Assembly: GCA_030295235.1 (NCBI GenBank)
Contig: AP026128.1
Location: 1,364,001-1,414,756 of the forward strand
Source: Fistulifera solaris
Taxonomy: Eukaryota
Reading direction: 5' to 3'
Length of the DNA stretch: 50,756 nt
The position numbers and the translations under genes were made by a program. Every line of letters starts with the position of its first letter. Position 1 is the first letter of the stretch. This document shows, in pieces, positions 140 through 46,885 of this stretch. The notes below the pieces were generated by a model, which saw only the letters and a list, made by a program, of their open reading frames with translations, was not told the DNA's origin and did no database searches.

Positions 140-833
140 TTACCATGCTCGCTGACCTTGAGACGCCGCTACGTAAACTGGCTCGGGCATAGGAACTCCC
201 TGCGGTTCCGAACCTTTCGTTTGCGATTGAGGGCCTTTGTAGGGCAGGAAGTTGGGACCTTTTAACTTGTTTTCACTCTCTTGTTTCGACGAAGCCGAAA
301 GAGCATCCAAGTAACTCAGATACATGGCAGCTGCTTCCGCCTTTGACTCGATTGGCTCTCCCCTGCGCAGGAGGCAAGCTAGCAAAGATTTCTTGTTTAC
401 GGCGTTCCGCCATCGAGGGAGTCCCGATGAGCCAGTCATCTCCTCTCTTGTGAATGACAGGTGCATACGTTCCGATTTGAACCGTCTCCAAAACGTCGGC
501 AGGTAGCAACCACGTTGGAGGTTTGTAAGGGGAATCAGCCATAGCCAAAAGTCGCAACATGTTGGTAACGGCGATAGAAGGATAAATTCGAGGAGGGCCG
601 TCGTGCGTTCGTCGTCCATCTTTATCGGATCGGCCGATTTTGTGAGAGGTAATAACATCGGCGGGATAGAAAGAAGGATTCTTGGAAGATCTCTCATAGT
701 CGAAATTGTCTCCTACTTTAAGAAATTCATGTAGCGCGAACGATTTCTGCGACGATCTGATTTCCTGATTCATAAAGGCAGCAACGCTGCTAAAAGACGA
801 AACGGCGAAAGCGGTGAAAAGAAGTCGGAACAT
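140..833 (-). CDS. Motif-family protein 1: putative plastid-targeted orphan, one apparent frameshift near 360
   Basis: N-terminus MFRLLFTAFAVSSFSSVAA|FM is a signal peptide followed by F. It contains FYPADVITSHKI and LLPADVLETVQI. ORF 273..833 joins the 140..697 frame at a G-run near 360, giving the C-terminus YLSYLDALS...KGPNFLPYKGPQ, which matches the gene at 46886-48120. Confidence 0.75.
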
Positions 834-7091: not shown

Positions 7092-8585
7092 TGTTTTCCA
7101 GTTCTGAAATAATAGGAATGATTTCGTTCTCAAGCGAATCGTATTGTGAACAAAGTATCTTTCAATTTGTTGTGATTGAGGCGACAATATTTTAAAGATG
7201 AGAGCGTTCCGATTTCTTCTGGTTGTTGTTTAAGATACCGTTCTTTCGATGTTGCACGAGTTTTCTAATCGAAACAAGTCAGGCTGCGAGAGATAAAGCT
7301 CAACGAGTCAAGATCTTTGTCACAAATAATACGATACACTACTTTTGTTCTGAAATCAACAGAAGCAAAGAAAAAAGGAAACAGCCGCGGTTTTCCTTGC
7401 GTCCTTGAGCGCGCGCGCCGCGTACGCTCGTGACAGCTGTTGTGTTACGTCATTACCACGTCACATGCAACGGCTCCAGTAAGGACCAAAGAGAAGAGAG
7501 AGAGGGTGCGACTTGAACTTCACTGCCAAACCCCGAACATCATGCGAGCTATAAACCGAACTGTACATTCGACGATCGACACTTCTCGTTCTAGGTTAGA
7601 GCTCGGGTTGTGGGTAAAACTCCAGGTTGCTAAGGGCTGGTTACACGCATGGACGCCCTGTCGCGATAGCACCGTGAAAGTACACTTTGTGCTACACTAA
7701 GCGTCGGAACGAAAATTTCACCATGGCAAAATACCGCATAAATCCAGGCTAAACATGGTGGGGCACCGATCAATTAAATAAAGCTCGATTGATATTCTTT
7801 TACTTTTATTGTATAATTAAGGAGAGGCGGTTCCAAAGGATGTTTAATTTTCATCAGAGGCGATCGAATTGCGGAGAAAAGGCGTGATTTGATTCTGCCC
7901 GTGCTTTTTCACCATAGAAAATCAACTCGAAAGCGAGTATCTCAGCAACAGAAGCGTCAAAATTGTGGATATCGCACAATAAGCCTTCTATAGCTAATAG
8001 CTATTAGATGGCCCAATTCCCACAATTTTGCAGGTCCCTGAACGAAGTTACAGCCTCATGAATCCTATTTCGCCATGGTCGTCGTGTTTTTATCGCGGTG
8101 GAGGTTAATCAATCAACGATAATTCGACTATACGCGTATAATGTAGTTACGTATAAATTCGTACCATTTGAACGAGGGGACGGTCGAAAAAGTAACCAGC
8201 CCTTACGGCTGTGGAGCAAGGGACGGATACAAGTACTGTACTAGTAATACGAAAAGCCTAGAATTTGCTTGAGCTTGGAGAGTCGCTCTGAAAATAGCAT
8301 CAAGCAAGTTGAGATGGACCAAAGCGAATTTAGTTGGGCAAAACAAAAAAGATTTAGTAGTTTCTCGTAGAATTCTGTGCACGAAAAGTGAATAGATACC
8401 ATGCATTACCATTACACTGCTCAATGAATAACAAGAATAGTGATAATATAAATGCGTTTTCCCATTTGGAAGAACATTGTTGCTGTGCGTTTTTGGAATT
8501 GATGTCAATCAGTGTCTTCGCAAGTCGCAAGCAGCTTGTATAATATTATAGCCCCAACAAGTTGGTAACAGAACAAAACTTCGCC

Positions 8586-11165
8586 TTATTCGTTCTTGCT
8601 TTCCTTAGCTTTTTTCTTTGCCAATTCGGCCAGCCCGTTGCCATCGTCAACAATTTCTGCGTCAATAATTCCGTTAACTGACTTGCCCTGAAGTAACGCC
8701 TCTTTTTTCTTTTGATCTCCTCCAGCTTTGCTTTCTGTTTTTGAAGAGCTGCTTCGGCTTCTTTCTTTATTTCGGCTTCTTCGCGAGCTATTTCCGCCAA
8801 GATTGCGGCTTCTTTCTCAGCTGCTTCCTTCCTTATACGCGCTTCTGCTTGAAGTCTTGCCGCTTCTTTCAAAGCAGCATCAACCTTGTTTTCACTATCA
8901 TCTGTAACACCCTCCGCTGTTTCCTTCTTTACGGGTTCGTCTGTCTTTTTCTGACTTGCCTTTTCCGCCCACCGAGCTTGTTGTGCTAATCGCTCTTCTT
9001 CAGCTTTGCGCGCTTCTTCTGCCCACCGAGCTTGTTCCGCTTTACGAGCTTCTTCAGCTTTCTTTGATTCTTCCAACCATCGAGCCTGTTCTGCTTGTCG
9101 AGCCTCTTCGGCTTTACGAGATTCCTCCGCCCAACGAAGTTGCTCCGCTTGGCGGGCTTCTTCTGCTTTTCGGGCTTCTTCCAGCCAGCGCGCATGTTCT
9201 GCTTTGCGTGCTTCTTCCGCCCAACGAGCTTGTTCAGCTATTCGATTCTCCTCTGCTTTCCGAGCCTCTTGTTCCATCCGGGCTATTTCTGCAAGACGGG
9301 CTTCTTCTGCTTTTCGAGCCTGTTCGACAAGTCGCGCTTCTTCAGCTTTTCGTGCTTCCTCTACAAGTCGTGCTTGTTTCGCAGCTTCCCGAGCCTCTTC
9401 GGCGAGTCGGGTTTGCTCGGCCAAACGCGCTTCTTCCGCTAGGCGAGCTTCCTCTGCTAAACGGGCCTGTTCAAGTCTACGCGCTTCTTCAGCTTTTCTT
9501 GCCTCCTCCGCAAGGCGCATTTCCTCGGCGATACGAGCCGCCTCTGCTATACGAGCTTCCTCCGCCAAACGCGCCTGTTCAGCCAATCTTGCTTGCTCCG
9601 CCAAACGAGCTTCTTCTGCCTTACGTGCCTCTTCCGCCAAACGTGCTTCTTCTGCTTTACGCGCCTCTTCCGCTAAACGTGCTTCCTCTGCAAGTCGTGC
9701 TTGCTCCGCCAAACGAGCTTCTTCCGCTTTACGCGCCTCTTCCGCTAAACGAGCTTCCTCTGCAAGTCGTGCTTGCTCCGCCAAACGAGCTTCCTCTGCT
9801 TTACGTGCCTCTTCCGCCAAACGAGCTTCCTCCGCTTTACGCGCCTCTTCCGCCAAGCGAGCTTCTTCAGCTTTACGCGCTTCTTCCGCTAAACGAGCTT
9901 CTTCGGCAATTCGTGCTTCCTCTGCCTTTCGAGCCTCTTCTGCGAGACGTGCTTCTTCCAGACGAAGTGCCTCTTCTTCTTTCCGCGCTTTCTCCATGAG
10001 CTGCCTTGCCTCCTGTTCTGCTTTCTGGAGCTCCTCGTACTGCTTTTGCGCAAGTTTTGCAGTTTCTATTGCCTTTAGCGTAGCCTGGTGCGCCGCTTCA
10101 GCCGCTTCGGCTGCTTTCTTTGCGACTTCCGCCTCCTTTGTAGCTTTTGTACTAGCCAACTGTGCAGCCGCTGACATTTTTGAATGAATTGTGTCGGCAC
10201 CATTTATCGATCCCTTGATGATTTTGGAAGTAATGCGAATCTCGTCTTCGACATTCTTGCCAATGTAGTCATCGTACTGATCTGGACTAGCAGCGGGCCA
10301 TTTTCCGGTTCCCGTAGGCTTGGACGCAATCAAGGGCTTATTCTCCGGCATATCCGGTGCTCCCAAGGCCTCGCTACCCAGTTGTCGAACCCAAGTTTGA
10401 CGCGGAGCAGGTGGAGGCTGAACGCGAATTTTGTTCATGACATCTGGTTGAATGTCATCTGCAGGGGTCGCTGTGGAATAGGACCAGCTGGACGTCCACA
10501 CACTTTTCCCCATGTTTTTCCGAGTCTCCATGTATTGTTCTCTCGCAGCTTCGGCTGCTGCGTCACTGTCGAGTGCATCCGTGCCCAACTCGTTAACCCA
10601 GGTTTTCTTTCGAGGTTTCTCTTCGGCAATTCGAATACCTTTAGTGATATCAGTTCCAATCTCGTCATCGTTGTGGGACTTTTGTATGCCATGAGCTCGA
10701 CCAAACAGTCTTTGGCTCTGTTTTCGTTCGAATCACTCCTTGTTCGTCGACTTTATAAGATTGCGTCGGTGTCGCGGGCACAGGCTGATCAAATGTCCCT
10801 GGTGCTTGTTGAGTGATGCGTATTTTATTGAGGACTTCTGAGCTGAATTCATTATCAAAGGAGGAACTGGACGGCGTCGGTAGAGGATTGATAGGCGCCC
10901 CATTCTTTGGCTTTGAGTTTTCTTCTGTACTTGAATCAATTCGAATACTCCTAAGATTCTCTTTACTGATGTAATCTTTATCATTTGAAGAGGCTGACCA
11001 CGATGCTCTCGGCGATTCCTGATGCAAAAGCGCACGCGTTAAATGTTTTGTATTCGTCGAACGATGCAGCGAAGCAGGAACAAAAGCAGCTGCTCCTGGG
11101 AAAGCTTGACTGGAAGCGAACAGCGCAGCAACTACAGCAGCCGAGTATTTAAATGAAAGACCCAT
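8586..11165 (-). CDS. Motif-family protein 5 with a long (EEARKA/EEARLA)n charged helix, apparent frameshifts near 10685 and 8705
   Basis: MGLSFKYSAAVVAALFASSQA|FP. Repeated VW[ST]SSW, EVLNKIRI / DITKGIRI / PDVMNKIRV and TWVxxLGx[DE]AL. About 330 aa of 6-residue E/A/R/K repeats. An alternative frame at an A-run gives the C-terminus EKEALLQGKSVNG...KESKNE* ending at 8586. Confidence 0.8.
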
Positions 11166-14162: not shown

Positions 14163-14647
14163 ATTGTTTGTAAAAGATCGAACTATGAGAGAGTCGTTTT
14201 ATTTCACAGAATGAACAAATGCAGCACATACTTTCATTATTATTCTATTGTTCGTCTTTTGCCTTTTGCCTTTCACAAGGGATAAGGGTGAACAGGGTTG
14301 TTCTACAGCGCGGCGCGCCGACCCACGTCACCTTACAATTCCTAAATAAATTTTTATTAGGTGGCTTTCAAGTTCAGTATTATGTAACTAGTCCTTGTGA
14401 GCGCGCCAGGCGGACATTTACGAGACACCAGACTACAAATTATTAGATAGTAACGCGCCGACACCCCCACAAACTTTTGATCGATCATCGAGCGACAATC
14501 GACACAAAATTAATGAGAAAACTGAGTTCGGTTCATCATCTTTCATCTCCCTTGCTTCTCATAATCTCTGACCATTAAAGAAAGTAAAAGACGTGAAACA
14601 AGAAATAAATTTTCATTGTCAGTCACTAAATTGAGAAAATAGAGAAA

Positions 14648-16078
14648 ATGTACTTCCGAAAGTTCGCTTTAGTGCTTCTAAGTGCATCAAGCGCCTCGGC
14701 TGCGTTCGTAGCGAGTCAACCCTCATTCGCCGATTCTTCACGTGCATCGACAGCACAAAACATGTATGCCGATGGCTTTCTTATGCCACAAGATGTCATC
14801 TCTTGGAGAGATCAACAAACAACGTCTTGTTATACCGCTCCTGTGTATGCCGATCCGAACAACTCGGTGCGTGAACCTCCCTCACCGTGGCCTGAATCGC
14901 GCGGCGATCGGCCAACACCTGCGTTCTTTGAAGAAACAAAGAAACAAGAGGACAAAAAGATTCACATGTTTGACTATTGGATGCAACCTTCGTCTTACAT
15001 GGAAGAGCTGAAGAAATCTGGCCGAAGATCTGAGTCACAATGGACTCCCGATGCCACGCCACCATTCTTTACAACCGGTTCTTTGAGCACGCCCGAGTCT
15101 CGATGGGCACGTGTCGATCCGGGCTTTACGCAATCGACTCCTTCTTTCAATCAGTACACATCTTCTTCTTATGCTACTGGGCGCTGGACTTCAATTTATG
15201 AATCCGATGCGATGAAATACCGTCAGATGCACAATTACATGGATGTCGAGGTTCAACAAGCACCTCAAGAGGCCGTTATAACCGCACCTGTCATTGAAGA
15301 GACACCCATCGCTTTGAATGAGCCGGATATTCGAGTGGAAGAACCAACGCTACAAGAAGTTTCTGCTTCAGTCAGCGAACCCGAACCGGTCTACCTTTCC
15401 GAACCAGTTATGGAGCAACCTATCGCACCGTGGAGCCAGCCGGAACCTGTAGTCGAGACGGCAAGTATTATTGAGGACATAATAATGGAAATGCCTAGTC
15501 CAGAGCCAGTGAGTACGATTTCGAAAGATCTTGCTGAAAAGATTTCCGCGTACGAGAAAAAGATCGAAGAAATGCGAGAAGTCGAAGCTGAATTCGTCGA
15601 TATTTTGAACCAGTCACGCAGTCGCTACGTCAACGACTTGAATGACATCCTGACAGTCGAATCAAGTTCGGATTATGTCGAAGAAGAAGAGTTCACCAGT
15701 GAGACCCAAAAGGAAGACGCACAACTATCTAGCAGCTTTGAAGAGCATCCTGGTGCGGAGACTTCCGTTGAATCGGCAGCAGCAACAACCACTGCCAGCT
15801 ACACCAATACCATCGATGTATTGGAAGAAGAGCTAGGCGAGGAGATCATGAGTACAATTCGTCGCGAATCTCATGTTAACACACCAGATGCTTACTTGAG
15901 CGCGGGTTCGAGTATGTACCAAAGCAGCTATTACGGTAGCCCAGGCCCGCAATATTCAACTGCAGGACGTTCTGGCCCCAACGTTTACCATAATTCCTAC
16001 CAAAACGCGGCACCCCATTACTCGAACGTGTACGATCGCCCTCTGAGCGAACGAAATCACTGGGACCGTATCTTTTAG
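14648..16078 (+). CDS. Motif-family protein 6: putative plastid-targeted disordered protein, intact ORF
   Basis: MYFRKFALVLLSASSASAA|FVA is a classic ASAF-like site. Contains GFLMPQDVIS, a Glu/Pro-rich middle, SRYVNDLNDILTVES and a Tyr-rich C-terminus. Confidence 0.85.
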   Translation: MYFRKFALVLLSASSASAAFVASQPSFADSSRASTAQNMYADGFLMPQDVISWRDQQTTSCYTAPVYADPNNSVREPPSPWPESRGDRPTPAFFEETKKQEDKKIHMFDYWMQPSSYMEELKKSGRRSESQWTPDATPPFFTTGSLSTPESRWARVDPGFTQSTPSFNQYTSSSYATGRWTSIYESDAMKYRQMHNYMDVEVQQAPQEAVITAPVIEETPIALNEPDIRVEEPTLQEVSASVSEPEPVYLSEPVMEQPIAPWSQPEPVVETASIIEDIIMEMPSPEPVSTISKDLAEKISAYEKKIEEMREVEAEFVDILNQSRSRYVNDLNDILTVESSSDYVEEEEFTSETQKEDAQLSSSFEEHPGAETSVESAAATTTASYTNTIDVLEEELGEEIMSTIRRESHVNTPDAYLSAGSSMYQSSYYGSPGPQYSTAGRSGPNVYHNSYQNAAPHYSNVYDRPLSERNHWDRIF

Positions 16079-18613: not shown

Positions 18614-19113
18614 ACATGGACGCTTTTGCTTTAAATTACGCTTGTGTCTCTTGCTACTTATAGGTAAAGCTAAAGTAAGTATAGTAACCTTTAATTTGTT
18701 GCTGAGACCTAATTCAAACTAGACCGGCCGAAGAGATGATAATACTTTCATTATATTATAGTGTTGGGGAGCAGCCGTAGTTTTTAACGTCGCACCGTAA
18801 TAACCACATTGAAGTTCAAATCCGCTGTTGCACACGTCACTTGGGCTATAAAAATGTGTGTAGAGGACTGTCTTGCGACCGGTTCTTTTCCGTTGACAAC
18901 AAGATCTGGATTTTGATTGGATCGTGTCGTCGTCGAACGTTGCACGCACGGAGTGCCATTTTGAGGAGTGTTGACGACGTTTGCGACATCAACACAAAAA
19001 ATGCATCTTGAAAGATTTGGCGAGTGTTTATTGCTTCATTATTGCTTCGTTTTCATTGCTTTCTGCTGTATTTGAATAAAGCAATCTCTGTCCTCAAACT
19101 ATAGCCCTAAAAA

Positions 19114-21994
19114 ATGAGCGGAATCTTTTTCCTTGTTTTGTTAAGTTGCTTCGCAGAGACACAAGGCGCTTGGGTCAGCAACAGTCCCCTTGTGTTAACG
19201 ACAACTCAATCTGTACGATGCGCCTCTCAAGCATCAAGTTACAATGATCCTTTCGCTTTTTCGGGTCAGGTCTTACCTCAGGGTATTTTAGGAATGTTTC
19301 GTGAACCGTCAACGAACAAAATGCCGTGGAAAGGATCCGGTGCTGTAGGCTTTCAAGAACCAAACGCAATTCGAGAGATGTCTATTCTCGATAGAACCTC
19401 GCCAGCTCAAGCAAAGGCAGAGACTGAAAAGAGTCAACAATTCAAACTCTCTCAGGCATCGGAGCCTACCTCAAAGAGGAGCGAATTAGTCCCTTTCTTT
19501 CAGAGATCGGATCCTAATTTCATGTCACCGGATGTCATGGCATCTGTCAGGATCAACCAACAGCAGTATCAGCTTCCTCAATTAAAAAATACGGTGTCAA
19601 GCGATTCGGCGAGCCGAAAATTGCGTGATGCTGCCATTTTGCGATTCGAATCGAGTTCTTGGGCTGCGGCAAATCTCAAATCCGAAAAAGCATCCGCGGA
19701 TGTACTCACTCGAGTCAATATCGGTATTGGTGCTCCTATTGCGGGCAAGTCATCGGCCCGTGTCGAAAATGTTACCAAAGGAACACAAGAATGGACTACG
19801 GAAAAAACGATCAAGCCGTCCAAGGATTCTGCGGATGTGCTGGTCAAAGTGCAGATTCATGATGAGATTGTGAATGCACCCGCATCACAGCGTGTCCAGG
19901 CTACAATTGCTACAAAACCGGATCAACCCGATGTAATGGATAAGGTAAACATCAACGAAGGGAAAATAGCGAATAACTCGGGTGCTACGGCCAAACCAGC
20001 AAAGGCATCCGCCGATGTGCAAACGCCTGTCAAAATTCATGAGGATGTCAAGGTCGAGAAGGTTGCGGAGCCGACCAAGGAATCGACCAGTAGCCAGTCG
20101 AAGGGAGCTGCACCATCTCCAACAGTACAAATTAATGGTGACAAACAGGATGTCGTCAAACCGTTCAATAAGAGTAACTCTCAGCCACCCATCGAGCCTA
20201 TTCTCGTCGATAAGTTACCGGAAAGCAAATACAAAAACGACTTGGATGATATTATTACTGTGGATTCACAAGTGGACACTCCTCCTACGAACACCCCATC
20301 CACCACGCAGGAGGCAACAGCAAATAATTCATCGGATTTGAAACCACCGGCCGACAAGCAGGAACCTACCGGTCCCTCTGTGCCGGTTGCAAAAACATCA
20401 GCGGAGTCTAAAGAGTTACTGAGTTCCGTTCAAATCACTAAGGATGCCAACCCTGCTCAAATTGCGAAACCAGACAAAGATTCTGCCGATGTTCTTACGT
20501 CCGTCAAGATTCATGCAGAGACAACGCCGACTCCAGTGGCTAAGCCGACAAAGGAATCTGCCGATGTCTTGACGCCCGTCAAGATTCATGCCGAAGAAAA
20601 GTCACCTCCTTTGGCAACCCCTACGAAGGAGTCTGCCGACGTTCTTACACCCGTTAAGATTCACGCTGAAAAGAAGCCGGTACAGGTAGCAACACCGCTG
20701 AAAGACTCCGCTGATGTTCTAACTCCAGTGAAAATCCACTCAGACACGAAGCCGACTTCATCATTTGCCAAACCATCTAAAGAGTCTGCTGATGTTCTCA
20801 CGCCGGTCAAAATTCACGACGATAAGCCACCCGTACGAACCGTCACAGCGGTGAAAAAGTCTGCCGATGTTCAAACTTCGGTTAAGATTCATTCAGACAA
20901 AAGACCTTCTCAAACGGCCAAACCCAGCAAGGCCTCTGCTGATGTTCAAACGCCTGTCAAAATTCACGAAGATGTAAAGCCGGCCCCAAGAGGAACGCCA
21001 CTGAAGGACTCCGCCGATGTATTAACTCATGTTAAGATTCACGCAGAAGAAAAAACCTGTCCGAGCAGTTGCGCCGGTCAAAGATTCGGCCGATGTTCTC
21101 ACGCCAGTCAAAATTCATGCAGACGAAAGGCCTAAACAGACTCCAACACCTCTGAAAGATTCTGCTGATGTTCTCACGCCCGTCAAAATTCACGCAGATG
21201 AGAAACCTGTGTTGGCGGCTACCCCGGTAAAGAAGTTAGCCGATGTTCAAACGCCAGTGAAGATTCACGCAGAAGACAAGCCGAGAAAACCTGTTACACC
21301 ACTAAAAGACTCCGCCGACGTCCAAACGCCAGTTAAAATTCATGCTGAGGAGAAACCGAGACAGACTGTTACACCGCTGAAAGACTCCGCTGATGTTCTC
21401 ACACCTGTGAAAATCCATGCAGAGGAGAAACCGAGACAGACTCTTACACCGCTGAAAGACTCTGCGGACGTCCAAACGTCTGTCAAAATTCATGCAGCAG
21501 AGAAGCCAAGACAAGCTCCTACACCGTTGAAGGACTCTGCAGATGTTCTCACGCCGGTCAAAATTCATGCTGAGACGGTATCGAAACCACTTACTAGACC
21601 TTCCAAAGATTCGGCCAATGTTCAGACTCCAGTCAAAATACATAGTGAAGACCAGTCAGCGACAAAAGAAAGTCCGACTGATTCGCACATCACCAAGTCG
21701 GCTGTAAAGTCGAAAGCGAAAAACGTAAACGGCATCAAAGACACTGCTCCTGTCACAGCAACTACGCAAGCATCATCGAGCGAATCGGCAACAACGGATG
21801 TTACTGTCGGAGGCATTCAGAACGATTCCGTCAAAGATTTGTTTGCGAGTAGCGTGATTGCAGATGTTATAACGAATGTTAAAATGTACGGGGACCGGAT
21901 ACCAGCGGCAAGCGCGGCCGAGTCAAAGTCGCAGAGCGGTCTGAAATGGAAATCCGATTTTGATCCGAATCGATGGGCCCCGCTTAGCTATTAA
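19114..21994 (+). CDS. Motif-family protein 8: multivalent repeat protein with 16 tandem K[DE]SADV[LQ]TPVKIH units, one apparent frameshift near 21052
   Basis: MSGIFFLVLLSCFAETQGA|WVS. The ~26-27 aa repeats continue unchanged from ORF 19114..21135 into 21029..21994 across an A-run. Confidence 0.88.
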
Positions 21995-28448: not shown

Positions 28449-29548
<1,100 letters not shown>

Positions 29549-29589
29549 TTATGTGGCAGGCGCCCGTGAGAGGCGGAAAAGAAGTTAAG

Positions 29590-29862
29590 GTTAAGGGCAT
29601 GGAAAACCATTACAGTAAGGCTTACCAGTAGACTCGCTAGGTCTCTAGATTTCTACTCCGTATTATTGATTAAACAAATTTGGAATCATCGGTGTCTGGC
29701 GACATAAGGATAACAGAGATTCTGTCGTTAAGGGCATGGAAAACCATTACAGTAAGGCTTACCAGTAGACTCGCTAGGTCTCTAGATTTCTACTCCGTAT
29801 TATTGATTAAACAAATTTGGAATCATCGGTGTCTGGCGACATAAGGATAACAGAGATTCTGT
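29590..29862. repeat. Tandem duplication, two copies of about 136 bp (period 137)
   Basis: GTTAAGGGCATGGAAAACC...ACAGAGATTCTGT at 29590-29725 and 29727-29862. Confidence 0.92.
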
Positions 29863-29873
29863 ATAGATTACAT

Positions 29874-30478
29874 CAAACAAAGATACTATGGTCGTTCCAG
29901 AAATTCTGGAATCAGTAATTTGGGTCATACAAAAGTCTGTGTTCGTTCCAGAAATTTTGGAATCTATACTTTAGAACAAACAGAGATTCTGTGGTCGTTC
30001 CAGAAATCCTGGACCCATTGGTTTGCGTCAAACAGAGATTCTGTGCCCGGTCCAAAAATTCTGGAATTGTTGTGTTGGGTCAAACAGAGATTCTTTGATC
30101 GTTCCAGAAATTCTGTAATCGAAGCTTTGGATCAACCAGAGATTCTGTGGTCGTTCCAGAAACTCTGGAAAATGTGTTTTGGAACCAACAGAGATTCTGG
30201 GGTCGTTCGGAAATTCTGGACCCGTTTTTGGGTTCAGACATAGATTCTGTGATCGTTCCAGAAATTCTGGAATAGTTGTTTTGGGTCAAACAGAGATTCT
30301 GTGGTCATTCCAGAAATTCTGGAATCTATATTTTGGATCATAGAGAGATTCTGTGCCCGTTTAAGAAATTCTGGAATTGTTGTATTGGGTCATACGAAAG
30401 TCTGTGGTCGTTCAAGAAATTCTGGAATCTATATTTTAAATCCAACAGATATTCTGTGGTCGTTCCAGAAATTCTGAC
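29874..30478. repeat. Degenerate ~52-bp minisatellite, about 12 copies
   Basis: Consensus is close to CAAACAGAGATTCTGTGGTCGTTCCAGAAATTCTGGAATxxxxxTTTTGGGT, with the internal dyad TTCCAGAA-A-TTCTGGAA. Confidence 0.9.
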
Positions 30479-39971: not shown

Positions 39972-42900
39972 TCAATTGCTTTGCCCGTCGTCCCATCTTC
40001 TCTGAGACATGGAATCAAGATACGAGCCACCACCAAACCAGCTGTTCTTCACTTCAGGATACACTTGAGTGCCTCGTCTGGGCTTGGAGGAAGACGTATC
40101 GCTATCCGACTTAGTTTCCGTGTAAATATCGACATTCTCGTTGTTGTTGACATCGCGGTAACTAGATTCAGAAACAGAAACATCTGCCGATGACCGATCG
40201 TCTTGCAAGTTAGAGTCTCCGTAGCCATAGCGGGCAAAAGGATTTTGGTTGGGATCGGCTCCTTCTTTCGGATTCCATTCCGGGTTTGGAAACAAAGAGG
40301 GGGGCTGCACTGAGAATTCCTCTTGTTCGAGAAATGCTGAAGAAAGAGGTTGTTCGTCGTCGGCCATAGACTGCTCTTGTGGCAACTGCGCCTCGAATTC
40401 TGAAAGAGGGTCCTCTTGTACAGAATATCCATTTGTCTGACTAGATTTATACAAAGAATCCAGATACGAGCGCATTTGAGGCCGGGAAGCCTCTGCAAAA
40501 CTGATAGCAGGGGGATAGTCATCGCGCTCTGAATCGTACATGGTCTGAGTCTCTGTGTAATAGCCACCTGGATCGATTCCAGGAAAGTCAAGAGAAGGCA
40601 CAGGCTCGCTACCGTTCTGTTCTGTGACGTAAGAACCCCAATCAAAGACGCTATTTCTTTCTTTCGACTCCTCATCAGGCCGTCGCATAGAATCAAGATA
40701 TGATTTTCCGTTTTGCCAGCTAGAGGACTGAGCGTCATTTATTGCCGCAGGGCGCTCATTTAAATCTTCGACACCTAAAGGTGGAACACCGCGGTACTCT
40801 CCAAAAATATCATTCTCTCCTTGATAACCGTCTTCAAACAATGCATCGGACTGAAATGGAGAAAAATCGCCGTACGAATCTGAGAAAGGGACTTCGCTCG
40901 AGGGAAAATCGCGGGCTTCGAAGGCAGAACTTTCGCCGAAAGAACCAGGAGCATAATTATCGCTCTCAAAAGGGGAGGAATCACCGTAGGGGCTCGGAGG
41001 AAACTGTTCTTGACGTTGCTCTTCTTCGCTAGGCAAATCTATAAACACGCTCTCGGCAGGATTGTCCTGGTACTGAGGCGGCCTGCCCCATCCTCCTTGA
41101 AACGGTCCAAACCCTCTATTTGCAGTGTTGTCAATGTACTCTGGTTGCCTTGTCGTAGGCAGACCAAAGAGATTTTCGGGAATATCCAAACGGAGACTAC
41201 CGGGCTGGTAATTGCTCCTCAAAAACTCTGTGAAAATACCGCCACGATTGCTACTATTGCGATCAGCGCCAACACGATCTCTGTTAAGCTTTCGTTCTGG
41301 AGTGTTCTCGAATTCAGGGCCAGTAACTGGTCGTCTTGGAGGAGAAGAAGCATCAGTACCCCTCGTGGCTTGGGTTGAAGGAACTAGGGGCGTGCTAGTT
41401 ACGCTTGGACTGCTAGTTTGTCTTGGCGAAGGCCGTTTCATGTTCCTGAAAATCGCTTCTCGGCTAGAATCGCCATCGTAAATGGTGGCGGAGGAGCGCT
41501 CTTCATTTTGTTCAAATAGATCGGCAAAAAACTTTTTCCTATCCACATTAGCGTCATTCGCGTTGCTGGAAGTTTGTTCAGCATTTTTCGCCGGGACTGA
41601 CGATGTAGGAGATTGTCGAGTGGGTTGGACTTTCTTCTGCCTTGATGTCTGTCCAACTACAGCGGGCGCGACGGATACTTGTTGTTGCTTCGATGGCGGA
41701 GCAATTTCGGACTTAGATGTAGCTTCGACCGGCTTTCCAGTCCCCTGTTCGACCCAGGTTTCCCTTTCCGGATCCCAGTGAAGTGGAGCAGCTTCCCCGT
41801 CAATATTTTAAAACGGCTTTCCGAATAATCGCCCGAGATCTGACTGTTCTGAACAGGAAAAGAATCTTCGTCGGCAGTGGGAGCGTCTCCGAAGTGGGCT
41901 CTCGTTGCGTCTTGTAGATACGAGGTGACTCCCGATTTATAAGCCGGATCGAAAACACCATTCGGTTGTGTGTAATCAGTAATTGAACCCGAATTAGTTG
42001 TACTAGAAGCCGAGTTCCAGGACGAAACAGAACCTTGATTTACGCCTTGAACTCTTCCACCTCCGGACAAACTACCGCTAGGATCGAAAGTACCAGAAAC
42101 TGTTCGTGGTCGATTAAAAACGCCCTGTGGACTGTATGTTGAGGATGAAGGACCGAGCGGAGACGTAGGACGAGAATCCTGAGACGACGCGAACCAATCG
42201 TTTCCGGAGCCACCATCACCGCCACTTGAGAAGTCCTGTGGAGTGGACGAAGGAAAAATTGTCGATTTGCCCAAAGTTTGTTTGAGTACATCAAAAGCCC
42301 ATGGATCCCATTTCTCTGCACGACTAAAAGAATTGGAGGACAAAGAATCCGAAGATCGTGAAGAATCGTTCCCCCACGAAGGTTCGTTTGATGGCGGTGA
42401 TGGTGGCTCCGGAGCAGGAAATGACGTTGATTTACCCAAAGTTTGACTCAGTACGTTGAAAGTCCGCGGATCCCACGTTTCGGTCTTTTCATACGAAATC
42501 ATGCGTTGCCCAGGCTGTGGTGTCGGAGAATCCTCCACTTGATCACGACCCGTGGAAAAGTCTTGCGGAGCAGACGATGGAAAGTGCGTCGATTTCCCGA
42601 GTGTTTGACTTAAGACATCAAACTTCCAAGGATCCCATGTTTCTGCGCGTTGAAAGGATGACCGAGGAGAAGAGTCTCTCGTTGACCCCGATGCCTCATT
42701 TGTTGACGACAACGAAATGCCTGTGTTGGCAAAATCTTCGGGAGAGGACGACGGAAACATAGTGGATTTTCCCAGAGTCTGGCTCATAACGTCAAATTTC
42801 CAAGGATCCCAGCTTTTCGCACGATCAAATGATGGATCCGATGATGCCTGGCTACCAACACTAAGGAATGAAGCATCTTGGTTGCCACTGGAATCAGAAG

Positions 42901-45900
42901 ACGCTTCATCGGATGCATAATCGGCTGGAGAGGTCGAAGGAAAAATTGTTGATTTTCCCAAAGTCTGACTCATAACGTCGAATTTCCAAGGATCCCAGGT
43001 CTCTGCTCTTTCGAATGCGCCTCGACTTGGAGAAGGCGCTCTGGCCCTAAGAGAAGTCTCTAGCCCCGATCCGGCAAAATCTTCCAGGGTGGACGATGGA
43101 AACTGTGAAGATTTTCCTAGTGTCTGACTCATTACATCGAATTTCCAAGGATCCCACGTTTCTGCTCGATCATAGGCATTAGTAGAGCGCTGACTGGAAC
43201 TAGCACCACCACCGTCCGCCGAGTAATCCTGTTTCGCGTCGCCTGACTCTGAATAAGAATCCGATCCAGCAAAAGTGTAGTCCCAACCTTGATCATCCTG
43301 CTGAGTGTCGAGTATCACATTTTCCGATTCAGAACCGCCCCCTTCACCAGACATCTTTGACTTCGCTAACTGATTCACAAAAGAACCAAAAATTACTTGG
43401 TGGCTTTCTTGGGTCCCAGTCCTCAGCGACTGAATCGCTCCTTATTTCGTCATCGACTATGACAGTAGGATTGGAAGCCGTACCGCCTTGCACTGGCTCC
43501 TTGGGTAAGCTATCATTCGCAACAGCTTCCACATATGCGCCAAAATCACTAGCGACCTTAGGCGTGCCGTCCGCTCTAGTATCTTCTACCGGCATGCTTC
43601 CTTTCGCTACCTCTTTCACAAAAGAACCAAACTCCTCTACCGGCTTCGCGGATCCACCACCAAAATCCGGCATCATATCCTTCGCGATTTCTTGTACAAA
43701 AGCGCCGAAATTTGTCGGCGGCTTAGTTGGATCGAATTCGATGCTGCTAAGAGGTGCCTCGGACTTATAAGAGCTGGGTGGACTAAACGTATCTTTTGGT
43801 AATAGAGGAGCGGGAGGGGATCCGGGCTCAAATGACGGACTTCCTGGAGCAAGACTGTCGTTCGGCAATAATGGTGCAGGAGGCGAGCGGGCTTTGAAGG
43901 CTTGGACGGTAGTGCCGGTATTCACATCGGGAACAAGTGGAGCTGGCGGAGATTCTGACGCAAAATTTTCGCGAGCAGTAGCATTGCTCTCGTCAGATAT
44001 CAGCTGCAACGGCAGAGATGTAGTATTTTTGAAACAGACAACGCGGCTGTTGCAGAATCCAATTGCGTGGCAGCATCAGAGCTTTCTGGCGTGCTTATTG
44101 TCGTCTCATTTTGCAAGATGTCGACCTTAATCGTGACGTCAGCTTTATCACCATCTACTGGCATGCTTCCTTTGGCCACCTGCTTTACAAAGAGCCAAAC
44201 TCCTCTACCGGCTTCACGGATCCACCACCAAAATCGGGCATCGTATCCTTCGCGATCTCTTGTACAAAAGAGCCGAAATTTGTCGGCGGCTTAGTTGGAT
44301 CGAATTCGTTGCTGCTTAGAGGTGCGTCGGACTTATAAGAGCTGAGTGGACTAAACGTATCTTTTGGTAATAGAGGAGCGGGAGGGGATCCGGGCTCAAA
44401 TGACGGACTTCCTGGAGCAAGACTGTCGTTCGGCAGTAATGGTGCAGGAGGCGAGCGGGCTTCAAATGCTGGGACGGTAGTGCCGGTATTCACATCGGGA
44501 ACAAGTGGAGCTGGTGGAGATCCAGGCTCAAACTTGGGACTTACTAATGAACCACTCTCTTTCGGTAGCAACGGCGCAGGAGGGGGGCCGGGCTCAAAGG
44601 TTACGCTATAAGGTGTAAAGTTGTCGTCGGGCATGAGCGGCGTGGTACGAGACGAGGACACGATCGGAAAAGGGGGTGCGGCGTCTACATCAATATCATC
44701 GAGCGGTTTGGAAGCTTCGAGATCCACCGATGGGGAAGGCGCGATTGGAGAAGAAAGTGTGGCATTCTCCTCTGAGGTACTATCGAGTGTGTCCAATCGC
44801 TTAGTCTCGTTGCTGGAAATCATGCTAATGACCGAAGATGCAACGTCCGCTGCACTTGTGCTAGCCAAACTGAAAGATTCGTTTTTAGCAGACTCAAAAC
44901 TTTGATCGAGAGAAGTAAGGTTCGACTTGCGCTCAATAGGCGGCACAGAAGTTGACCGTTTTCGATCCGACTTGGCGGGTTCATCCAACCACGTCACCTT
45001 CATCTTTGGTATCTTCTTGATTAGCCGCTTAGGCGTAATTTGCTCCCCCTTTTCCTAGCTCATTTGGCTGCGATTCAGAAGTCTTCAATACAGGCGTTGT
45101 ACTGTTCGATAGCGTCACGTCTATCGACGACGATGGCAGCGACCTCTCTTCTTTACAAATAGTTGAAATGTCTGAAACGACGTCCGTTGCATTTGTTGCG
45201 TTCGCTATTCCGGCATCCACAGCTATAGTGGTATTTTTCGCAAGAAAACTCGTTGATTTTTTCGACGGAAAAGGAGAATCTGTGTCGACCGGGACGGCAG
45301 CTTCAAAAGTCGGGTTGTCCCTTGAAATTGATAAATAAGCCTGAACCAAGGAATCATTTGAACCTACGGTAGACACAAGCGTCCTGGTCAAATTAGTTGA
45401 CGGCCTTTTCTCGAGTTGGTTCTTTTGCAACGAGTTAGCCGGTAAATTCGATTTCGTTGCCGTCGGCTGCGTCGCATTCAAATCGCCAAAAAATCCCGCC
45501 AAAGCCCTCGCTACCGAGGATATCGGTTTCTTGTCAACACCAGATTTTGTGTCATTAAATGTTGAACTGTTTGTATTATTCAGTAAATAACTGTTTCGAC
45601 CAGTCGGTTCGTTTTTGAGAACGGTGCTGTTGGTGTTTTCTTTGTGAATGAAACCTTTCGTATCAGTTGTAGCTGTTGAGTTTCTTTCGCTAAATTCATC
45701 TGGCTTCCGCTGTGCGAAAAGCGAAGTTGTCCACCGTCGACCTTCTTTCATTCTGGTACTGCCATGTCGCTTATCGAAACGAATCCGGGAAAGTGGTCCG
45801 ACTACCGTTGCCTTGTCATCTTTCTCTGAAGTCGATTGTTTGCTGTTCGCTTTTCTGCGTTTGCCGATCGCTCGACTAAGATCCTCATCTTCAATGTCGA

Positions 45901-46062
45901 TATCTCTCTTGTTAGTGCTCTCTGGAAGGGAATGAAATGTAATTGTAGGGCGCCGCAATCGAGATGGTGCAAAGGGACGGTGACCCATCCCTCCGCATCG
46001 ATCACAAGATGAATAAGAAGGATAGGAAGGCAGTAAATCGCTCGTTTCCGTGTTTGTCGCAT
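39972..46062 (-). CDS. Motif-family protein 9: ~2000-aa disordered multi-repeat protein split by about six apparent frameshifts
   Basis: MRQTRKRAIYCLPILLIHLVIDAEG|WVT. ORFs 45802..46062, 45029..45988, 44185..45003, 43344..44009, 41657..43378 and 39972..41546 abut or overlap, mostly at homopolymer runs. Repeats are PPAPL[LV]P, FG[SA]FVx[EQ]xAK, 6x WDPWKFDVMSQTLGKS-like and 3x SYLDS[ML]. Confidence 0.75.
43585..44521. repeat. Intragenic direct duplication: 43585-43953 and 44154-44521
   Basis: Two highly similar ~368-bp blocks encoding the PPAPLLP and FGSFV repeats. Confidence 0.9.
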
Positions 46063-46885
46063 TCTTTGTGTGAGTTTATATCAACAATTCGAAGTAAATT
46101 AGCATTGAAGCCCCATGTCCTTATTTATTTGTCCGAATGAAAAGGCTTCGCACTTCGCACTGTTCATTCATTCGTTTTTGTTTTGCTGCGACGATTGCCA
46201 TCACGATGCAACACGAAAACGAGACACGAGACGACACGAGCGCTTGGAACTCGGCGAGCAGATCTTTCGTCAAAGTTGCAGTTCTACACTTCAGTCTTAT
46301 ACAGTGAGCAGCAGGTAAGAACAGATGGCTGTTTTGATTAGTAGACTGAGTACCACACTCAGTACTTCAACTTGTATAGTTCATCGATCGGATCGCCATT
46401 TTTGAAGATTTTCGTTGCTTTTAAGTAAGCGCATGTTCAACGCCGTATCATGGATTGTATTATAACCAACCGAAACTATCTTTTTATAAACTAGTACGCG
46501 TCTGTATAAAAAGATTCCTGATGGCAGACAGCACAATCCCGAAAGGACTGATGTCATCGATGTGTCTCTCCGTAGAATATCTACGCGTTTGTCGTAGAGA
46601 AAAAAATGGAAACACAAGGTGACGTGTCCTGTCCGCCACTCATGGAAAACGCAACGTTCAAGTCTGAGTACACTAAGGCTGTATATAACATACATTACGT
46701 CTGTCGCTCTCTTTCTCGTGCGTTTCATTCTCAACTCGCAAATCCGCCGACAACCATCACAAAACAACAACAGTCGACGATCGACAATCAACAACGTACA
46801 GTAAACAAACAGCCGCTTTTGTCCCTCTTGCAGTTGCAATCACGCTCCTCGCTTGATATTGTTTAGAAAGGCAGCCTCACTGATA

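Follow-up and report, generated by a model that had tools for sequence, protein, structure and literature searches.

The window analyzed here, a stretch of 50,756 nucleotides, is the terminal part of contig C13 in the 51.7-Mb, 62-contig genome of Fistulifera solaris, and its end is the end of that contig. F. solaris is an allopolyploid diatom with two subgenomes (10.1101/2021.11.10.468027). Contig C14 is collinear with the window at about 80 to 90% identity across long blocks, and we treat the two contigs as homeologues, i.e., sister chromosomes. A row of 12 genes or gene pieces, all encoding low-complexity proteins, extends from just left of the window to position 48120 (Table 1). In all 10 cluster proteins with a readable N terminus, the sequence opens like a signal peptide and, as judged by eye, has F or W at the apparent +1 position.

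Short words recur along this row. SYLD.[LM] occurs five times in 3 of the 12 genes (shuffle mean, 0.002), and a PxDV-like word occurs eight times in 7 of them, mostly at residues 41 to 55 (shuffle mean, 0.03); since both patterns were derived from the cluster sequences themselves, these figures overstate their significance. The two genes on which this study centers, at the left edge of the window and next to the telomere, are members of this subtelomeric row, whose low-complexity products start with signal peptides and draw repeatedly on the same short motifs.

Table 1. Features of the window and of related genes elsewhere in the genome (positions are those of the window unless another contig is named)
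Feature	Position	Strand	Remarks
Left gene	140..833	-	230 aa; signal peptide ending VAA-F; no Pfam; intact C14 copy
Left half A, SYLDALS	316-296	-	Residues 173-179; six-frame translation
Left half B, KGPNFLPYKGPQ	262-227	-	Residues 191-202, 11 residues past half A; six-frame translation
Third cluster gene, C-terminal piece	39972..41807	-	Three half A copies, SYLDS[ML]; also in C14
Right gene	46886..48120	+	411 aa; signal peptide ending INA-W; Pro/Gly/Ser/aromatic-rich; corrected frame
Right half A, SYLDTLS	48031..48051	+	Residues 383-389; six-frame translation
Right half B, KGPNFMPYKGPQ	48079..48114	+	9 residues past half A, one residue ahead of stop
Stop codon of right gene, TAG	48118-48120	+	
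Probable poly(A) addition site	48155	+	35 bases past stop; one run X3 contig
Telomere, ~102 TTAGGG units	50140..50756	+	Nearest cluster gene is the right gene
C24 gene	C24, ~579,060-580,520 (L073:268-1725)	+	486-aa Ala/Ser/Pro-rich repeat protein; no Pfam
C25 gene	C25, ~312,100-314,000 (L063)		Plastid type, low complexity; copy on C26
C20 gene	C20, ~186,700-189,560 (L061)		Plastid type, low complexity; copy on C19

A two-part motif shared by the outermost genes

A preliminary description of this DNA had proposed that the two genes share a C-terminal signature, SYLDxLS followed by KGPNF[LM]PYKGPQ (here half A and half B), hidden behind frameshifts. Six-frame translation bears out the motif itself at 227-316, where the minus strand reads YLSYLDALS...KLKGPNFLPYKGPQ, and at 48031-48114, where the plus strand reads SYLDTLS...KGPNFMPYKGPQH and then the stop. 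The label "C-terminal" fits the right gene, in which the motif ends the protein; in the left gene 28 more residues follow, and the motif is not strictly C-terminal. Likewise, the motif of the right gene does lie in a short frame of the present assembly (47944-48117), whereas that of the left gene sits in an ordinary stop-to-stop open reading frame (ORF), 140-712.

Between the two genes, 11 of the 12 residues of half B match, 7 of these 11 by a different codon, as do 6 of the 7 residues of half A (different codon in 4 of the 6). The spacers differ in sequence as well as in length, and both halves are kept. A degenerate DNA pattern for the motif had no match in the reversed control and four in the 51.7-Mb genome, namely, both genes on each homeologue; a looser pattern returned the same four places. 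No 11-of-12 match occurred in any of five shuffled windows. The ungapped score of the left protein against the right was 74, compared with best scores of 41 and 46 in 30 shuffles of each, and BLASTP gave a single significant segment with 19 of 34 residues identical (E, 1e-7). Against 20 other proteins of the region (11 from the cluster and 9 controls), left and right were each other's only partner above the shuffle maximum. The two genes are the only carriers of this motif variant, in agreement with the suggestion that the telomere-proximal gene is tied to the left cluster.

Reading frames and assembly errors

The left gene is split in the present assembly by one surplus base in a C run at 360-363. 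Its C14 copy is an unbroken 230-aa ORF identical to the public record FisN_23Lu038 (GAX26495.1), and removal of any single base among 359-363 yields exactly protein P0014. In the right gene the assembly is wrong by a single base at each of three positions (47145, 47611, and 48027), as seen in short-read contigs from runs X1 to X4 (four runs from two studies). Relative to these contigs, the assembly lacks a T behind 47145 (or a C behind 47148 in the homeologue), has one surplus base at 47611, and lacks a C behind 48027. The extra C at 48027 is present at full depth in the three runs that cover it (36.8/36.8, 8.96/8.96, and 12.7/12.7). After the three corrections the frame is open from the ATG at 46886 for 411 codons; the product is identical to FisN_23Lh001 (GAX26477.1) at 377 of 411 residues, and it ends in the entire 367-aa record FisN_23Hh001 (GAX27529.1), which begins at a later Met and is without the presequence. 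A run X3 contig carries 22 untemplated A residues past 48155, which fits a transcript end, runs X1 to X3 being only guessed to be RNA. An intron at 48027 had been considered and was dropped once the contigs revealed the missing C.

Both frame corrections proposed earlier were therefore confirmed independently, the left one by the intact C14 copy and the public record and the right one by the short-read contigs and the public record. The frameshifts themselves mean less than had been claimed: they are sequencing or assembly errors without biological meaning, and the public annotations already have the correct frames. The three records, which represent the same genes or their homeologues, contain the motif in the correct frame; they are annotated as hypothetical only, and their names do not mention the shared motif.

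The 48027 frameshift, just ahead of the motif, is present in both C13 and C14, which could speak for real frameshifts, either programmed recoding or pseudogenes. However, the full-depth extra C in contigs of three runs and the open frames of the public records leave this reading with practically no probability, and the same applies to its companion, a match arising from recent gene conversion, which is excluded by the different codons at 7 of the 11 shared half B residues. A programmed ribosomal frameshift was not found either, the frame change not being present in the true DNA as represented by the C14 copy, the contigs, and the public records. Among the single-base indels of the assembly, one thus affects an identical position in C13 and C14, and agreement between homeologues is consequently no proof of a real frameshift.

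Conservation of the motif

The proposal that conservation acts at the protein level held up in the comparison of homeologues. Between 48028 and 48120 all seven substitutions are synonymous in the motif frame and all seven are nonsynonymous in each other frame; between 140 and 349, 9 of 10 are synonymous in the motif frame of the left gene. Across orthologues of the right protein, half A is invariant in all five aligned sequences (61 to 94% identity), and half B has an N>S change in P0008 and a K>R change in P0009. Residues 383-411 are 76% invariant over four orthologues, versus 45% for residues 33-339. In the left protein, half A is invariant in seven of seven aligned orthologues, and 11 of the 12 positions of half B are invariant across the same seven, the sixth position being L or M. 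This protein is conserved throughout, with 81% mean column identity over seven sequences; it may therefore be folded, and the motif is not conspicuous there. The motif pair is under purifying selection in two real, intact protein genes.

As a gauge of the disordered, prion-like composition typical of PYCO1-type Rubisco linkers, the P+G+S+Q+N fraction is 0.34 in the left protein and 0.48 in the right, which also has an aromatic fraction of 0.14. Atlas models have a mean pLDDT of 0.39 to 0.40 (right protein, 0.39), low values that come from shallow alignments and are no proof of disorder. An AlphaFold2 model of the left protein from seven sequences was uninformative (mean pLDDT, 34.6); half A falls within a helix predicted in a low-confidence model.

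Phylogenetic range

Built from 4 sequences over 44 positions, a motif profile matched eight proteins at E values up to 10 among 4418 candidates: three of the left type, four of the right type, and P0018, a PYKGPQ repeat protein without half A or a presequence that was taken as unrelated. The matches come from F. solaris and close relatives with 60 to 89% identity. A phmmer search with the left protein, unfiltered, against 1.84 billion representatives returned only the protein itself, and a metagenome pattern scan gave one match, in a short frame without half A, which was taken as chance. From the profile and phmmer results, and within the sensitivity of a word-filtered search, the exact motif seems restricted to F. 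solaris and its close relatives. Pfam has no family for either protein, a sequence search of the PDB with both gave nothing below an E value of 0.5, and Atlas searches gave no usable match. The literature searched, which covered few subscription papers, yielded nothing on the motif or the gene cluster; neither YLDSL, YLDAL, and YLxxL nor KGPNF, YSPFG, and FSPFG were among the matches listed. The motif thus appears to be undescribed, although of a kind already known, i.e., short motifs shared by disordered plastid proteins.

Related words in linked and unlinked genes

Half A also occurs in a third cluster gene, in copies starting near 40703, 40469, and 40025. No half B stands behind them, being absent after the two copies that could be tested. 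The C-terminal piece of this gene is one of five ORF pieces (window 39972-46075, minus strand, and L014:1253-6841) that overlap end to end with shifting frames in both homeologues. Together they probably make up a single gene, oriented head to head with the right gene, for a signal-peptide protein of about 2000 aa in which WDPWKFDV-type repeats and FEPGSPPAP repeats accompany the three SYLDS[ML] words.

Genome-wide, the half A (SYLD) pattern gave 69 matches, versus 52 in the control, so that most of them are chance. Among the 40 of these 69 loci that were examined, two, on C20 and C25, are low-complexity genes with several half A copies, a number of which have KKSFSPMG, KKPSFAPT, or similar words behind them. 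The half B pattern gave three matches versus three in the control, one of them in a gene on C24 whose product has a plastid-type start and seven [SNT][FY]SPFG...YL units, with B usually preceding A. Besides hydrophobic segments, the products of the C25 and C20 genes have recurrent SYL[DE]x[LI] words with K..[SN][FY][SA]P words behind them, and both genes are frameshift-broken in the present assembly. All three unlinked genes have a signal-like start with F at the apparent +1.

These genes were then used to score the window, each matrix being derived from the opposite search: that for half B exclusively from genes located with the half A pattern, and that for half A exclusively from the gene located with the half B pattern. 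By these matrices the two motifs rank second and third of about 62,000 window positions, the first being an antisense chance match, and their scores, 27.7 and 26.3, exceed 40 of 40 and 39 of 40 shuffled-window maxima. For half B placed behind half A, P is 0.018 and 0.022 in the two proteins, values that are not independent of each other. A hidden Markov model of the unlinked modules recovered half A only (E, 0.47 and 1.0) and missed half B, and the exact pattern KKS[FY]SP[FY]G had no match. The three unlinked genes were chosen by eye among 43 loci, and the patterns were made after the motif was known. With these qualifications, and at the level of sequence, the motif is likely, if only with modest confidence, akin to a pair YLxx[LM] plus K..[SN][FY]xP found in three unlinked plastid-type disordered genes. 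In contrast to the left and right genes, those on C20, C24, and C25 have several motif copies.

A putative docking motif

Short conserved blocks around a free spacer, in chains without a recognizable fold and in varied copy number, are the anatomy of a short linear docking motif. In the left and right proteins the similarity is limited to about 34 residues, with both halves kept over a changing spacer, and this points to a shared docking element. We consider it fairly probable that the motif, in its two parts, is such a short linear docking site and that both proteins use it to bind the same plastid partner. Both proteins would be imported by the ER route, most likely to the plastid, and would be largely disordered. 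SYLDxLS would form an amphipathic helix and, after a variable spacer of 9 to 11 residues, KGPNF[LM]PYKGP an extended aromatic-proline strand, the whole folding onto the surface of one partner common to both proteins. The motif may be a conserved special form of the pair that is repeated many times in other plastid-type disordered proteins of the same genome, and was probably inherited from a common ancestor inside the cluster. The one-copy left and right proteins could then be clients or adaptors, and the multicopy proteins the scaffolds, of the structure that recruits them.

The same match could be the last trace of an old gene duplication, in which the segment was kept for structural reasons of its own, such as self-association or folding back. 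We regard this as unlikely, though worth weighing. The first serines of the motif are encoded by AGY and the last by TCN in both genes, whereas the checked copy in the third gene has TCN first, and an SF[YF]P word lies near residue 50 to 55 of each protein, where other cluster genes have the PxDV-like motif. A tyrosine motif, that of the linker PYCO1, works in self-association (PMC10288592). Against duplication alone, nothing outside the motif aligns, the spacer has changed in both length and sequence while the two halves were retained, and half A recurs in linked and unlinked genes.

A signal read by an enzyme or sorting machinery (for phosphorylation, cleavage, degradation, or targeting to a subcompartment), as opposed to stable docking, would agree with the position of the motif at or near the C terminus of both proteins and with its S, Y, and K residues, which could be modified. 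Two blocks with about 19 conserved positions between them nevertheless exceed what most modification sites need, and the multicopy spacing in the unlinked genes better suits multivalent binding, which makes a signal improbable.

Location bears on the docking reading as well. Both the signal peptides and their cleavage sites, identified by eye, are kept in full-length orthologues. Subtelomeric rows of fast-evolving low-complexity genes often encode surface proteins. This counts for secreted or periplastid proteins (of cell wall, mucilage, or endomembrane) whose motif acts outside the stroma, as do the presequences, in which the signal peptide alone is certain in outline and the transit regions are atypical. 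The left transit region has E at +5 and the right one D at +9, the latter replaced in P0007 and P0009; such early acidic residues are atypical for plastid transit peptides, whose first 15 positions are almost without acidic residues (PMC12136025). For a high-confidence plastid prediction, ASAFind requires F, Y, W, or L at +1, a mark of plastid import that is absent in periplastid proteins (PMC12136025). With F or W at the apparent +1 in every readable cluster N terminus, an action outside the stroma has, in our judgment, a rather slim chance.

Comparison with pyrenoid linkers

If the motif does dock, its leading candidate partner is the pyrenoid (Rubisco or shell), a guess we offer only tentatively. 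PYCO1 (Phatr3_J49957), the Rubisco linker of the Phaeodactylum tricornutum pyrenoid, binds the small subunit of Rubisco via several KWSPRGGS stickers and the large subunit via an AAEWGSMNQ helix at its C terminus, and its self-association depends on repeated GTGYNP motifs (PMC10288592). It is the only Rubisco linker of diatom pyrenoids in the literature covered here; its conservation is not wide, and no linker was found in Thalassiosira pseudonana (10.1101/2023.10.26.564148). PYCO1 resembles the present proteins in its diatom origin, low-complexity chain, and short aromatic motifs and, going by the predicted features of the two, in a plastid-type presequence and a near-C-terminal helix as a binding element. 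By eye, and unscored, its KWSPRGG sticker and half B share an aromatic residue two places ahead of a proline, and its AAEWGSMNQ helix recalls SYLDSM.

The words themselves do not recur: KWSP[RQ], GTGYNP, and EW[GA]SMN are absent from the left and right proteins. The closest approach to GTGYNP is GAYDP, present once and conserved in the right protein, and half A is a near-C-terminal helix-like word, an AAEWGSMNQ-type sequence being absent in a by-eye comparison with the published motif. In the genome, a KWSPRG pattern gave five matches versus four in the control, and the two of the five that were examined lie in frames of 36 and 45 codons. No tandem array runs over the left or the right gene, each protein having one module. 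Lacking the PYCO1 words and tandem repeats, the two are not members of the PYCO1 type but may work in a like manner. The C24 protein may be, in outline, a better Rubisco-linker candidate than either of them. A complex prediction of the large and small Rubisco subunits encoded in this genome with right residues 372-411 scored 0.00 in two alignment-free runs and leaves binding undecided either way.

Pyrenoid proteins of Chlamydomonas, EPYC1 among them, provide a precedent in their common Rubisco-binding motif (PMC7673724), and the PYCO1 report gives a further one for a motif common to pyrenoid proteins (PMC10288592). One short motif reused in many or few copies by otherwise unrelated proteins is the working model here as it is there; the sequence differs, the plastid is green there and red here, and the present motif is in two parts with a partner that is only putative. 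A more far-reaching and rather doubtful extension is that YLxx[LM] plus K..[SN][FY]xP would be a general pyrenoid (Rubisco or shell) address code of this diatom lineage, in which the PYCO1 sticker was not found, with the C20, C24, and C25 proteins as scaffolds and the left and right proteins as high-specificity clients. The subtelomeric row would in that case be a gene cluster for the components of one plastid condensate. Diatom pyrenoids account for a large share of marine CO2 fixation. When several plastid-type disordered proteins have one short motif in common, that motif offers a handle like the one that organized the Chlamydomonas pyrenoid proteome. The motif yields two defined peptides of about 30 residues and, should the partner not be pyrenoidal, would still mark an unstudied family of lineage-specific plastid proteins.

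Other features of the region

Contig C60 is plastid DNA of 232,645 bases in which rbcL-rbcS is present twice, one rbcL copy being truncated by a frameshift. Within the row, a cluster gene at window positions 8546-11000 has a long AEEAR[KL] coiled-coil repeat, and its C14 copy encodes a single 878-aa protein with a signal-like start. A repeat gene at 19111-21994 contains many ADV[LQ]TPVKIH units spaced 25 residues apart and is split by a frameshift near 21030-21130. A noncoding island in the middle of the row (28765-30476) consists of an (AC)106 run, a 137-bp duplication, and 52-bp tandem repeats and partly resembles sequence near 48200-48430 and 49850. The right protein contains a second half B-like word, YGSSFAPMG, which is the top half B match of the window, and shares the word SPWPES (window 47400-47420) with a 476-aa cluster gene at 14630-16078, with a score inside the shuffle range.
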